Below, piece after piece: positions 30,567 through 32,493 of a stretch of 34,903 bases of DNA. The stretch lies in the IMG/VR virus record IMGVR_UViG_3300033402_000340. One strand, written 5' to 3'. This DNA comes from a virus. A program made the translations under genes and the position numbers. The notes under the pieces are model-generated. The model had not been told where the DNA came from. It worked only from the letters and a program-made list of their open reading frames with translations, and did not search any database. How positions within the stretch are numbered: position 1 is the first letter of the stretch; each line of letters begins with the position of its first letter.

Positions 30567-30638
30567 GCTTTCGTATGCATCTGGTGAGGCAGTCGGCTTG
30601 TCACGCCGATGAGGCCGGTTCGATTCCGGTCGAGAGCG
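30567..30638 (+). tRNA. tRNA-Asp (anticodon GTC), copy 1
   Basis: Acceptor GCTTTCG/CGAGAGC (G.U pairs), 3-bp D stem, anticodon arm TCGGC TTGTCAC GCCGA, T-arm GCCGG TTCGATT CCGGT. Confidence 0.75.
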
Positions 30639-30640
30639 CT

Positions 30641-30672
30641 GAGCCCCTGGAGTCAGAACACTTCTGACGGGG
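30641..30672. promoter_or_regulatory. hairpin GCCCC TGGAG TCAGAA CACT TTCTGA CGGGGC directly after tRNA-Asp and ahead of the EF-Tu RBS
   Basis: Read directly from the sequence. AAGGAG and GAGG follow. Confidence 0.45.
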
Positions 30673-30716
30673 CACTACAAGGAGAAGAAGGGCTGGCAAC
30701 CCGAGGCGAAGGCACA

Positions 30717-31886
30717 GTGACGAAGCAGCACGTGAATGTTGGGACTATCGGACACGTCGACCATGGCAAGACTACGCTGACGGCGGCTCTTCTGGCCGTA
30801 CAAGCGCATGCGAAGCTCGCGAAGATCAAGAGCTACGCGGATATCGCCAAGGGCGGCACGGTCCGAGACGAGTCGAAGACGGTGACCATCAACGTGTCCC
30901 ATGTCGAATACGAGAGTGCTACTAGGCATTATGCGCATATCGACTGTCCTGGACACGCGGACTACATCAAGAACATGATCACTGGCGCCGCCCAAATGGA
31001 CGGGGCCGTGCTCTTGGTGGACGGTAGCCAAGGACCTCAGTATCAGACGAAAGAGCACATTCTGCTTGCTCGTCAGGTCGGGGTTCAGAGAATCGTAGTG
31101 TTCATCAACAAAGTGGACATCTCCGATCCTGAGCTTCTGGATCTTGTCGTCATGGAGACGATCGAGCGTTTGGAGCTGCACGGCTACAAAGACTGTCCGG
31201 TGGTCAAGGGATCGGCGCTCAAGGCGCTCCGAAATCCCGCGGTGGATGGGGCTTGCATCACAGAGCTGGTTGCCGCAATGGACCAGCATTTTCCCGATCC
31301 GAAGCGAGATTACGACGCGCCGTTCATGATGCCCATTGAAGGCGTACACACGATCCCTGGTCGCGGCACTGTCGTCACGGGTCGCATCGAGCGTGGTGTC
31401 CTCAAGGCTGGGTCCCCCGTCGAGATTGTCGGATTGATAGAGGCAGACTCCAAGCCTCGTCAAGTCGTGGTCACGAGCATCCAGATGTTCCACAAGGATC
31501 AAGTGGAGGCTCGCGCGGGCGAAAACTGTGGGCTTCTCCTCAGAGGAGTGGCTCGTGATGAGGTAGTTCGTGGTCAGGTGCTCATCGCTCCCGGCTCCGT
31601 ACAACCTCACGCAAAAGCTCTCGCGGAGCTATTCGTGATTCCGAAAGAAGAGGGTGGTCGGCACACGCCGATCTTCCCGGGATACAGACCTCAATTCTTC
31701 TTCGGCACGACTGACGTCACCGGAACGGTGACGAGTTTCGGCGAAAACAAGATGATCAACCCTGGAGATCACGCACAGGTCTCGCTGGAGTTGATGGTTC
31801 CGATCGGACTCGAGCCTGGAATGAGGTTCGCTGTTCGTGAGGGTAGCAAGACTGTCGGCGCGGGCGTCATCGTCAGCGTCGAGTGA
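30717..31886 (+). CDS. tuf: elongation factor Tu homolog (divergent)
   Basis: G1 [14 protein letters not shown]3 [19 protein letters not shown], and domain [20 protein letters not shown]. Probable GTG start with GAGG 11 nt upstream. The ORF is open from 30609. Confidence 0.85.
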
Positions 31887-31939
31887 ACACTGGGAGGCGC
31901 AAGCCTCCCAGTGTCTCGTGAGCCAGCTGGTGACGGCGC

Positions 31940-32467
31940 TTGACGGCTGGCTCACGACGCTTGTATGATGACCGTGTGAAATACACGCGAGAGGTACTAC
32001 AAAGAGTTGTAAGAGAAAGTTTCTCTCTTGCAGAAGTCCTAACTCGACTCGGATTCAAATCATATTCCGGAAGCACCAGTAGCCTCATCCGGCGAAGGAT
32101 TGAAGAGTATGAATTGAACACCTCTCATTTCAGGAGAGGGTTCACAGGAAAATTTTCAACTAAAAGAAAAGCTCCGTCACAAATCTTCACTCCGACTAGT
32201 AAGAGAAGACTACCCACCGTTCAATTGAGAAGAGCTCTCTTAGAAAGCGGAGTAGAGCATAAGTGCGAAGCTTGTGGTCAAGGCCCGAAATGGAATGGCA
32301 AACCATTAACACTCCCAATCGATCATAGAGACGGAGATTGGTCCAATAATGACAAAGACAATCTCCGATTTCTTTGTCCAAACTGTCATTCACAAACATC
32401 GACTTACGGCACTAGAAAACTGCCCGCGTACGCATCCGGTGAGGCGGCTGGCTTGTCACGCCAGTGA
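31940..32467 (+). CDS. HNH homing-type endonuclease; its last ~15 codons overlap tRNA-Asp copy 2
   Basis: CEACG...IDHRDGDWSNNDKDNLRFLCPNCHSQT. Confidence 0.75.
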   Translation: MTAGSRRLYDDRVKYTREVLQRVVRESFSLAEVLTRLGFKSYSGSTSSLIRRRIEEYELNTSHFRRGFTGKFSTKRKAPSQIFTPTSKRRLPTVQLRRALLESGVEHKCEACGQGPKWNGKPLTLPIDHRDGDWSNNDKDNLRFLCPNCHSQTSTYGTRKLPAYASGEAAGLSRQ

Positions 32468-32493
32468 GGAGGGTTCGACTCCCTTCGTGGGCG
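32422..32493 (+). tRNA. tRNA-Asp (anticodon GTC), copy 2. It is a diverged paralog with compensatory changes in the acceptor and T stems.
   Basis: Acceptor GCCCGCG/CGTGGGC, anticodon arm CTGGC TTGTCAC GCCAG, T-arm GAGGG TTCGACT CCCTT. Confidence 0.75.

Follow-up and report, generated by a model that had tools for sequence, protein, structure and literature searches.

We have analyzed a stretch of 34,903 nucleotides of DNA from IMG/VR virus record IMGVR_UViG_3300033402_000340 (one strand, 5' to 3'; the whole stretch is called the window below), in which a gene for elongation factor Tu (EF-Tu) is placed within an array of tRNA genes. This EF-Tu belongs to a clade carried on huge viral contigs, is preceded by a conserved leader RNA and has two substitutions in its amino-acid pocket. 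The order of the locus is tRNA-Asp(GTC), hairpin, EF-Tu, HNH endonuclease and a second tRNA-Asp(GTC), the last being overlapped by the HNH open reading frame (ORF). This anatomy had been described in an original prediction made from the sequence, and both tRNA-Asp genes, the hairpins, the EF-Tu, the HNH gene and its overlap with the tRNA were all recovered using ARAGORN, Rfam, Pfam, PHROG, RNA folding and covariation (Table 1).

Direct observation covers the anatomy of the locus, the clade membership of the EF-Tu and the selection acting on it, the covariation in its leader, its variable position in tRNA arrays, and the presence or absence of homing endonucleases beside it. As a whole account of these data, we consider it probable that the locus belongs to an array of tRNA genes carried by a huge phage or phage-like extrachromosomal element, in which the EF-Tu module would be the lineage's own, the HNH gene an independent arrival and the tRNA-Asp genes old paralogs. 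The EF-Tu is most likely a bona fide elongation factor that the element would supply for its own translation, as Al-Shayeb et al. proposed. Both tRNA-Asp copies are surrounded by a run of at least 19 co-directional tRNA genes (25881-34354), with the order His-Arg(cct)-Asp on the 5' side of EF-Tu and HNH-Asp on its 3' side.

EF-Tu gene and its clade

The gene product has the three-domain architecture of EF-Tu (PF00009, E 7e-51; PF03144, E 3e-20; PF03143, E 2e-28), aligns over its full length to solved EF-Tu structures in PDB (E 1e-139) and passes the NCBIfam EF-Tu subfamily model NF000766 (536.2 bits, cutoff 449). Homologs mostly have 388-389 amino acids, and a longer ORF from an ATG at 30609, inside the tRNA gene, is probably not used. 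An identical EF-Tu is carried by a 42-kb Joint Genome Institute (JGI) metagenome contig overlapping the window.

The phage clade comprises more than 120 protein clusters that are 78-88% identical, many of them on contigs of 100-530 kb (60-530 kb overall). On IMG/VR viral contigs of 62-436 kb, 79-88% identical homologs are found with arrays of up to 51 tRNA genes plus a transfer-messenger RNA (tmRNA) gene in 21 kb. Identity to cellular EF-Tu is 53-61% among the matches listed, the best of the GTDB species representatives listed being 61% identical. In a neighbor-joining (NJ) tree of 128 taxa and 378 columns, the window and phage-clade sequences were monophyletic in 47 of 50 bootstraps, and the sister group was composed mostly of sequences from other IMG/VR huge contigs, together with three from bacterial assemblies. 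This phylogeny, which had been suggested as a check, places the EF-Tu outside any bacterial phylum, in a clade carried on IMG/VR huge contigs and not on a host chromosome. Membership of a host clade together with Thr-Tyr-Gly-Thr-tufB flanks, which would mean host chromosome, was looked for and was not found. The idea that a phage-borne EF-Tu is rare holds for deposited phage genomes (INPHARED), where no homolog of more than 60% identity was found and the top matches were bacterial-looking contigs or host DNA, but not for huge phages, for which passages of Al-Shayeb et al. (2020, Nature; PMC7162821) report genes for EF-G, EF-Tu and EF-Ts.

The ratio of nonsynonymous to synonymous substitution rates (dN/dS) is 0.06-0.16 against 12 relatives, with dS saturated, and there are no stop codons; the EF-Tu is under strong purifying selection. 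A sliding-window identity scan found no recombination breakpoint inside the gene that might account for Asp on either side of it, the nearest relatives being the loci L109 and L083 throughout. As side observations on the closest large relative (L088, a 436-kb IMG/VR contig), the EF-Tu frame is split by a frameshift at 10930-11050, either an assembly error or a pseudogene, and a group I intron match (76.6 bits) lies at 6329-6559 inside the tRNA array.

Conserved and altered residues

Residue numbers are those of E. coli (UniProt) unless T. thermophilus is stated, and the residues reading the T stem are taken from PMC3239215. The G1-G5 motifs, correctly described before as retained, and the catalytic His are present (GHVDHGKT, the T of KTVTI, DCPGH, NKVD and SAL) and near-invariant in the clade. 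The P-loop, T62, DCPGH85, NKxD, SAL, H67, E216, T229, N274 and T383 are invariant or nearly so in 131 clade members, and the T-stem readers Q330, T339 and E379 (T. thermophilus Q341, T350 and E390) are kept in 130-131 of them. Two features of this protein had been regarded as unusual. NKVD in place of NKCD is not unusual, as it occurs in 25 of the 78 cellular EF-Tus sampled. The altered region after the P-loop (switch I) is real but not special, the same variant being present in 26 of 80 cellular EF-Tus, from Planctomycetota, Polyangia, Patescibacteria and Elusimicrobia.

The changes that mark the clade lie elsewhere. Four of the six residues of the conserved amino-acid pocket (H67, E216, D217, F219, T229 and N274; PMC6386890, PMC3239215) are kept, and the other two are replaced: D217G in 125 and F219H in all 131 members, which also all have R334G. 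T. thermophilus D227, equivalent to one of the altered positions, has been counted among the pocket residues highly conserved across bacteria (Schrader and Uhlenbeck, PMC3239215). G217, H219 and G334 are present in none of 78 cellular sequences and, wholly or partly, in the sister group including bacterial stand-alone paralogs; among the 80 cellular sequences sampled, the pocket changes are found only in L004 and L014, two sequences grouping with the sister clade. Further clade-fixed changes are V104L, A107G, D109Q, M112Q, E150V, Y160Q/H, F304A, F322I and A367G; like D217G, F219H and R334G, they concern positions with a conservation of 90% or more in cellular EF-Tu. Some of the further changes fall in the helix C/D region (E. 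coli 104-112 and 150-160), which we take to be the surface for EF-Ts and L7/L12.

Leader RNA and flanking hairpins

A leader of about 78 nt precedes the EF-Tu start in 12 of the 12 related loci first examined, whatever stands further 5', and a pattern scan of metagenomes gave 27 more EF-Tu loci. The leader is composed of a hairpin (CCCC, a UGGA bulge, a variable stem of 5-7 bp and GGGG), a purine tract (AAGGAGAAGAAG), a mini-hairpin GGG-CUGGCAA-CCC and then about 12-14 nt to the start codon. For 33 distinct leaders, 98.7% of cells pair and seven of the 12 pairs have double changes, which none of 500 shuffles matches; in slid registers the pairing falls to 39-64%. A covariance model of the leader has a single match in the window (30642-30719, 58 bits), matches upstream of every phage-clade EF-Tu searched (41-76 bits), and has no match in 80 cellular tuf loci or in sister viral loci. 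A loose pattern scan of IMG/VR gave 15 matches, of which the six with the hairpin all precede EF-Tu, the rest being due to chance. No Rfam family matches the leader or the hairpins at the gathering threshold or at E up to 5 above chance level, and the chance-level matches (Tymo tRNA-like over the tRNA, mir-449 and sR42) were rejected.

Because the leader model matches phage-clade EF-Tu loci only, whatever stands 5', the hairpin 3' of tRNA-Asp copy 1 is a part of the EF-Tu gene; it travels with EF-Tu and is not a tRNA feature. At the other end, the first of the two GC-rich hairpins after the stop codon has 12 bp and a GCAA loop and the second has 14 bp, both without a U tract. A GC-rich hairpin of this type follows the stop codon in most related loci, where its position is conserved and its sequence is not. 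Promoter-like or terminator-like signals beyond chance are absent from tRNA-Asp copy 1 to the end of EF-Tu (the plus strand being clear over 30479-30716), and no terminator-like call was obtained at the 3' hairpins. The 77-nt spacer between tRNA-Asp copy 1 and EF-Tu is filled entirely by the leader; in 13 distinct loci the next tRNA gene begins 30-60 nt after the EF-Tu stop, and in many the upstream tRNA gene is 77-145 nt away. The predicted functional unit is the leader RNA, the EF-Tu coding sequence and the 3' hairpin. As a separate observation, the nearly invariant 7-nt loop of the leader mini-hairpin (CUGGCAA; mini-hairpin 30690-30702) formally matches the pattern of an anticodon loop (Y32, U33, GGC, A37).

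Position of the EF-Tu module and the tRNA-Asp genes

The tRNA genes beside EF-Tu differ among relatives. Upstream neighbors are Asp (about eight loci), Thr, Pro, Met, His, Ile, Glu, Leu and Arg; downstream neighbors are Asp (the window, L105, L142, L149 and L154), His (five loci with four distinct sequences), Gly, Lys, Pro, Met, Trp, Ala and Leu. Two relatives are informative for the window. L083 has the order His-Arg(cct)-Asp-Asp-Trp-RNase P, and its EF-Tu occupies another site, 3' of Thr(ggt)-Gly(tcc)-Thr(tgt). L131 shows synteny to the window (His..Arg(cct)-Asp-Asp-[EndoVII]-EF-Tu-Ala(cgc)-Ala(ggc)-Gln(ctg)-Ala(tgc)-Thr), and its EF-Tu lies on the other side of the ortholog of the window's second tRNA-Asp. 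From the variable tRNA neighbors and from L083 and L131, we therefore conclude that the EF-Tu module has changed slots within the array.

Copy 1 of the window's tRNA-Asp genes has no encoded CCA and has a canonical TTCGATT T loop, G73, the anticodon GUC and C38. The two copies are 77% identical, and most of the changes between them compensate one another within the acceptor, anticodon and T stems. They were mutual best matches among the first 14 tRNA-Asp genes compared; the second, EF-Tu-proximal tRNA-Asp of L131, compared later, is 84% identical to copy 2 of the window and thus closer to it than copy 1 is. Orthology of the window copies to the L083 pair was tried and given up as uninformative (identities 56-69%). 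CTGAG stands 3' of both copies, and the self-similarity extends over 30572-30643 and 32427-32498. The earlier observation that CTGAG and a hairpin follow both copies is correct, the second hairpin being supported by its folding energy (Table 1) and the first by covariation. A reading of the copies as direct repeats left by an insertion failed, and so did that of a cassette bracketed by tRNA-Asp when the suggested synteny comparison was made, since the copies are functional paralogs with compensatory changes and the pair stands in tandem, with no EF-Tu between, in L083 and L131. Because of the 77% identity, the compensatory changes and the tandem pair in relatives, the two genes are best described as pre-existing, putatively functional old paralogs of the array, and not as boundaries made by an insertion.

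HNH gene and other homing endonucleases

The Pfam match of the HNH gene is borderline (E 4e-4; 21.1 bits, cutoff 21.4), and its CxxC...HxxG..N..CPNCH motif is intact (CEACG...HRDGDWSNND..NLRFLCPNCH). Translation likely starts from the GTG at 31976. The ORF overlaps tRNA-Asp copy 2 by 46 nt, so that its last 15 codons and stop codon are inside the tRNA gene. Its GC content is 0.455, against 0.574 for EF-Tu. One sigma-70-like match (31940-31969) was rejected as a promoter of its own, since the number of matches in the region equals chance expectation.

The pairing of EF-Tu with this HNH gene was found in none of about 25 other loci, and homologs of the HNH gene are placed at other inter-tRNA sites in L103, L107 and L083, never by EF-Tu. 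Because its homologs stand at other inter-tRNA sites, its GC content differs and its pairing with EF-Tu is unique to the contig, this gene is regarded as an independent selfish insertion, a putative free-standing homing endonuclease. A linkage of the family to tRNA-Asp was also considered and dropped, as homologs lie between Leu-Leu, Gln-Gln and Gly-Leu, and one near an opposite-strand Asp gene.

Homing endonuclease genes adjoin EF-Tu in six lineages and belong to four families. The downstream slot is occupied by the phrog_10822 HNH gene in the window, by GIY-YIG in L088, by HNH_5 in L153 and by an HNH-like gene, related to the second HNH gene of the window, in L087; the upstream slot is occupied by Endonuclease VII in L086 and L131. 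The downstream slot is polymorphic for presence and absence, as 13 relatives have a tRNA gene there while it is occupied in L088, L153 and L087. An acquired or mobilized module had been suggested in the original prediction; EF-Tu is indeed relocatable and endonucleases adjoin it repeatedly, but EF-Tu and this HNH gene do not make a unit. The self-contained EF-Tu module, with its covarying leader absent from Rfam, thus moves within tRNA arrays and attracts four homing endonuclease families.

tRNA T arms

An EF-Tu tuned to odd tRNAs had been offered as another explanation. Three tRNA genes of the window have T loops in which A54...U58 swaps the usual T54-A58 pair: Asn-GTT (26786-26859; ATCGTTA), Ala-GGC (33365-33439; ATCGTCA) and Ala-TGC (34121-34194; ATCGTTC). 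Both tRNA-Asp copies have normal T loops. We applied the T-stem affinity model of Schrader and Uhlenbeck (Table 2 of PMC3239215) to 372 distinct tRNAs from 19 related loci. Predicted affinity per amino acid follows the bacterial class means (r=0.88 for 20 classes), a correlation that is independent of the inferred common-scale reference of -9.9 kcal/mol. Asp, His and Gly tRNAs are predicted to bind tightly and Asn, Gln and Trp tRNAs weakly; the predicted T-stem free-energy difference (ddG) of the Asp class is -0.90 against -1.10 kcal/mol in bacteria, and the window copies, at -0.6 and -0.9 kcal/mol, fall in the tight class.

The suggested check of the T-arm residues in domain III found all three readers intact, as given above. 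Invariant T-stem readers, a retained bacterial affinity pattern and normal Asp T loops do not support the tuning. The canonical compensation kept by the phage tRNAs fits the unchanged T-stem-reading surface, and tRNAs obeying the bacterial T-stem/amino-acid compensation appear made for a canonical tRNA-reading surface. Any functional novelty of this EF-Tu would be in the amino-acid pocket and not in the reading of the T arm.

RNase P RNA and a tRNA-like RNA

A full-length ribonuclease P (RNase P) RNA is encoded about 900 nt downstream of the EF-Tu stop, and a second one was found in L083, a 252-kb IMG/VR contig (5552-5904, 263 bits). Our literature search found no description of a phage-encoded RNase P RNA.

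Between tRNA-Asp copy 2 and the RNase P RNA, a conserved tRNA-like RNA was found that is called by neither ARAGORN nor Rfam. It has a 7-bp acceptor stem, a mini D arm of 4 bp and 3 nt, a normal T arm, and an anticodon stem with an invariant, Trp-CCA-like 9-nt loop (CCUCCAAAA) that contains CCA and an anti-Shine-Dalgarno-like CCUCC. When six sequences are aligned, the acceptor, D and anticodon stems all have compensatory changes. Its relatives include those at 12019-12100 in L088, about 5480-5555 in L083, where it adjoins the RNase P RNA, 1221-1292 in L084 and 12595-12666 in L109. Apart from this, Rfam gave an extra tRNA missed by ARAGORN at 27261-27330 (plus strand, 39 bits), and the ARAGORN "tmRNA*" call at 33123-33756 was rejected as a probable artefact, as it spans three tRNA genes and lacks an Rfam tmRNA match.

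Comparison with known systems

Phage EF-Tu is already on record, and the bare finding is not new. The present EF-Tu resembles those of huge phages as described in passages of Al-Shayeb et al. (PMC7162821), which report contigs of at least 200 kb with large tRNA sets, tmRNA and translation genes and propose a role in sustaining translation. Unlike the present data, those passages include no leader RNA, pocket substitutions, position within a tRNA array or flanking homing endonucleases, and RNase P is absent from the main text of that paper. No description of the leader RNA of this clade or of its two pocket changes was found in the literature. What is added here is the anatomy of the module with a leader absent from Rfam, the pocket substitutions, the hopping between slots with endonucleases, the canonical tuning of the tRNAs, and the RNase P RNA with the tRNA-like RNA.

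In the E. coli thrU-tyrU-glyT-thrT-tufB operon, tuf lies directly 3' of co-oriented tRNA genes with no promoter between, and tRNA processing frees the mRNA. In 80 GTDB genomes, Thr-Tyr-Gly-Thr stands upstream of tuf in 21 and tRNA-Trp downstream in 22. The window EF-Tu is likewise directly 3' of co-oriented tRNAs, with no promoter or terminator call between. Vestiges of the tufB order are seen in relatives, with Thr(ggt)-Gly(tcc)-Thr(tgt)-EF-Tu in L083 and EF-Tu-Trp in L087 and L109, and these suggest an old capture from a bacterial tRNA-tuf operon. The window differs from that operon in having Arg(cct) and Asp upstream, tRNAs also on the 3' side, no secE-nusG, and a leader seen in none of the 80 cellular loci.

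As for the HNH gene, SegB of phage T4 is a homing endonuclease in a phage tRNA cluster which drives preferential inheritance of the flanking tRNA region (PMC2330249). The HNH gene of the window similarly is free-standing between phage tRNA genes and is present or absent among relatives; it differs in being a predicted endonuclease of the HNH type (phrog_10822), where SegB is GIY-YIG, and in ending inside the neighboring tRNA gene. The HNH endonucleases of the tRNA region of T5 are a second example of homing endonucleases among phage tRNAs.

Positions 217 and 219, altered in this natural clade, are also altered in engineered factors, EF-Sep (H67R, E216N, D217G, F219Y, T229S and N274W) and EF-pY (E216V, D217G and F219G), which admit negatively charged or bulky side chains (review PMC6386890). 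Unlike in these, H67, E216, T229 and N274 are unchanged in the clade, and the likeness is one of sequence alone; besides, the phage tRNA-Asp T stems are in the tight-binding class, so that the usual compensation is not relaxed. As synthetic biologists alter both positions to shift the amino-acid range of EF-Tu, the clade offers natural variants to be tested.

The stand-alone EF-Tu paralogs of bacteria (L004, L002 and L014, the last from a Myxococcota metagenome-assembled genome, MAG) share the EGVH pocket and FFG (R334G) and group with the sister clade. They differ from the phage clade in being only 60-62% identical and in having neither tRNA neighbors nor the leader motif. The paralogs lie at 5887-7188 in L004 and 4003-5154 in L002, near genes for an MFS transporter, TetR and squalene cyclase, and no conserved partner gene was found, the downstream ORFs of L004 and L002 being unrelated.

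If the findings hold, the locus together with its adjacent RNase P RNA offers a view, open to testing, of a phage equipped both to produce its own tRNAs and to deliver them with a factor of its own, and the module, the pocket variants and the compensation rule kept by phage tRNAs should interest both translation and phage biologists.

Proposed explanation and alternatives

In the account that we favor, EF-Tu would be co-transcribed with the flanking same-strand tRNAs, as bacterial tufB is with its upstream tRNAs, because there is no room for a promoter or terminator of its own between the tRNA genes. The mRNA would be released by excision of these tRNAs, possibly with the RNase P RNA that the element itself encodes; hairpins at 5' and 3' may protect the ends of the mRNA, and the leader may organize translation initiation. 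The EF-Tu would supplement or replace host EF-Tu during infection. The HNH gene would have entered the slot that separates the EF-Tu 3' hairpin from the following tRNA gene, and it takes its stop codon from that tRNA gene. The function of the leader, the role in infection and the nuclease activity of the HNH protein are predictions from sequence.

Several points weigh against this account. The score for the NCBIfam EF-Tu equivalog TIGR00485 is 518.6 against a cutoff of 522.4, about 4 bits short, and with the two altered pocket residues the same substrate range as EF-Tu may not be assumed. A cellular homolog closer than the 61% among the GTDB matches listed may exist. Two members of the sister group, L004 from an Albitalea terrae isolate and L002 from a Nannocystaceae MAG, are located among ordinary chromosomal genes without tRNAs, and with such a placement transfer may have occurred in either direction. 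The leader hairpin by itself is no more stable than shuffled sequences (z -0.5), and covariation is its support. Co-transcription and processing are deduced from spacing. Genes for capsid, portal and terminase are absent from the window, the label "phage" derives from the IMG/VR membership of related contigs and from gene content, and the carrier may be a large plasmid-like element.

The alternatives differ mainly in what the EF-Tu would do and where it came from. If D217G and F219H altered the aminoacyl-tRNAs carried, the protein would be a re-engineered factor serving a partly separate decoding branch, with its synthesis set by the leader RNA and the phage RNase P and with a functional linkage to tRNA-Asp; candidate cargoes, formed on tRNAs that the phage encodes, would then include acidic, bulky, modified or mis-acylated species. 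We consider this unlikely. A role mainly in counter-defense, as a copy escaping the abortive-infection proteases that cut host EF-Tu in switch I, is also improbable. Both Lit and type IV Thoeris have been shown to target EF-Tu (bioRxiv 10.1101/2024.10.24.620036; PMC13581612), and the Thoeris caspase cuts EF-Tu after R45 and R59. Both Arg positions are Lys in the phage clade (113/131 and 129/131). The Lit cleavage site in switch I is presumably Gly59-Ile60, and G60-I61 is T-V in the clade. However, switch I as a phage-specific, protease-evading novelty had to be rejected, because the variant is common among cellular EF-Tus, as described above, and two clade members (L105 and L090) have the classical RGITI type; moreover, the loop contains a new Arg (TVRD), and the promiscuous Thoeris caspase has many proteins as its targets. 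It is still harder to believe that the EF-Tu serves outside bulk translation, as a cofactor of a replicase or of assembly or as a decoy for EF-Tu-dependent sensors, although Qbeta replicase co-opts EF-Tu, the major capsid protein of T4 is bound by it, Avs7 uses it as a structural cofactor (PMC13581612), and the bacterial paralogs with the same pocket changes stand outside translation operons: the residues for catalysis, ribosome activation and tRNA contact do not vary, purifying selection is strong, and the gene sits inside a tRNA array close to tmRNA, RNase P RNA and an IF3-like gene.

Regarding origin, EF-Tu and HNH might be one mobile cassette, inserted between or captured with the two tRNA-Asp genes, of which the repeats would be the ends or the homology used for moving. 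Compared with the L083 order, leader, EF-Tu and HNH occupy precisely the interval that separates the Asp genes of the window, Asp is the commonest neighbor of EF-Tu on either side, and L105 likewise has an Asp gene on both sides. We nevertheless doubt the cassette, since this HNH family never adjoins EF-Tu in another locus, other lineages have different endonuclease families or none in the slot, the Asp copies have diverged with compensatory changes, the GC contents of the two genes differ, and the hairpin after the first Asp gene moves with EF-Tu and not with the tRNA. Most improbable is that the window is a piece of bacterial chromosome with a tRNA-tufB-type operon. The classical bacterial arrangement of tRNAs 5' of tuf with tRNA-Trp 3', the RNase P RNA as a cellular hallmark and the chromosomal sister sequences L002 and L004 would agree with it, but it is already largely refuted by upstream tRNAs other than Thr-Tyr-Gly-Thr, by a long co-directional tRNA run with interspersed HNH and Endonuclease VII genes and ORFs that are nearly all ORFans, by nearest relatives on IMG/VR contigs, by the absence of str-operon and secE-nusG neighbors, and by the low best cellular identity among the matches listed.

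Other features of the window

Coordinates are summarized in Table 1. Almost all ORFs of the window have no Pfam or PHROG match; those with matches are RtcB, an ATP-dependent DNA ligase, a nucleoside hydrolase, a 5'-nucleotidase, a major-vault-protein-like ORF and endonucleases.

Table 1. Coordinates of the EF-Tu locus and of other features in the window.
Feature	Position	Strand	Support or remark
tRNA-Asp(GTC) copy 1	30567-30639	+	ARAGORN; Rfam tRNA, 47.2 bits
Conserved 5' leader of phage-clade EF-Tu	30642-30716	+	Covariation; covariance model
EF-Tu coding sequence, 389 aa, GTG start	30717-31886	+	Pfam GTP_EFTU/D2/D3
Two GC-rich hairpins directly 3' of the EF-Tu stop	31887-31914, 31916-31957	+	Fold -53 kcal/mol, z -6.95
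Free-standing HNH endonuclease ORF (maximal)	31940-32467	+	phrog_10822 "HNH endonuclease", E 2e-47, residues 2-148
tRNA-Asp(GTC) copy 2	32422-32494	+	ARAGORN; Rfam tRNA, 45.9 bits
Long imperfect hairpin 3' of tRNA-Asp copy 2	32495-32555	+	-29.7 kcal/mol, z -5.8
Conserved tRNA-like RNA	32560-32629	+	blastn matches in L088, L083, L084, L109 and L134
Full-length bacterial type A RNase P RNA	32798-33134	+	Rfam RF00010, 287.6 bits, model positions 1-367
HNH-like endonuclease (phrog_2255)	33699-34130	+	E 8e-26; between tRNA-Gln(ctg) and tRNA-Ala(tgc)
Endonuclease VII domain protein	25253-25675	+	E 4e-20; just 5' of the first tRNA
FGE-sulfatase (formylglycine-generating enzyme-like) domain ORF, hydrophobic N terminus	29070-29675	+	Between tRNA-Pro and tRNA-His
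RtcB RNA ligase	14088-15326	+	E 2e-124
ATP-dependent DNA ligase	2831-4072	+	
Major vault protein shoulder and vault repeat domains, 852-aa ORF	18581-21139	-	E 1e-29

Relatives of the phrog_2255 gene are scattered through related arrays. The occurrence of RtcB, an RNA-repair ligase, on the same element as many tRNA genes may bear on defense against tRNA-cleaving nucleases. The vault-like ORF lies in a local GC-rich stretch (0.55) and overlaps a 508-aa ORF on the plus strand.

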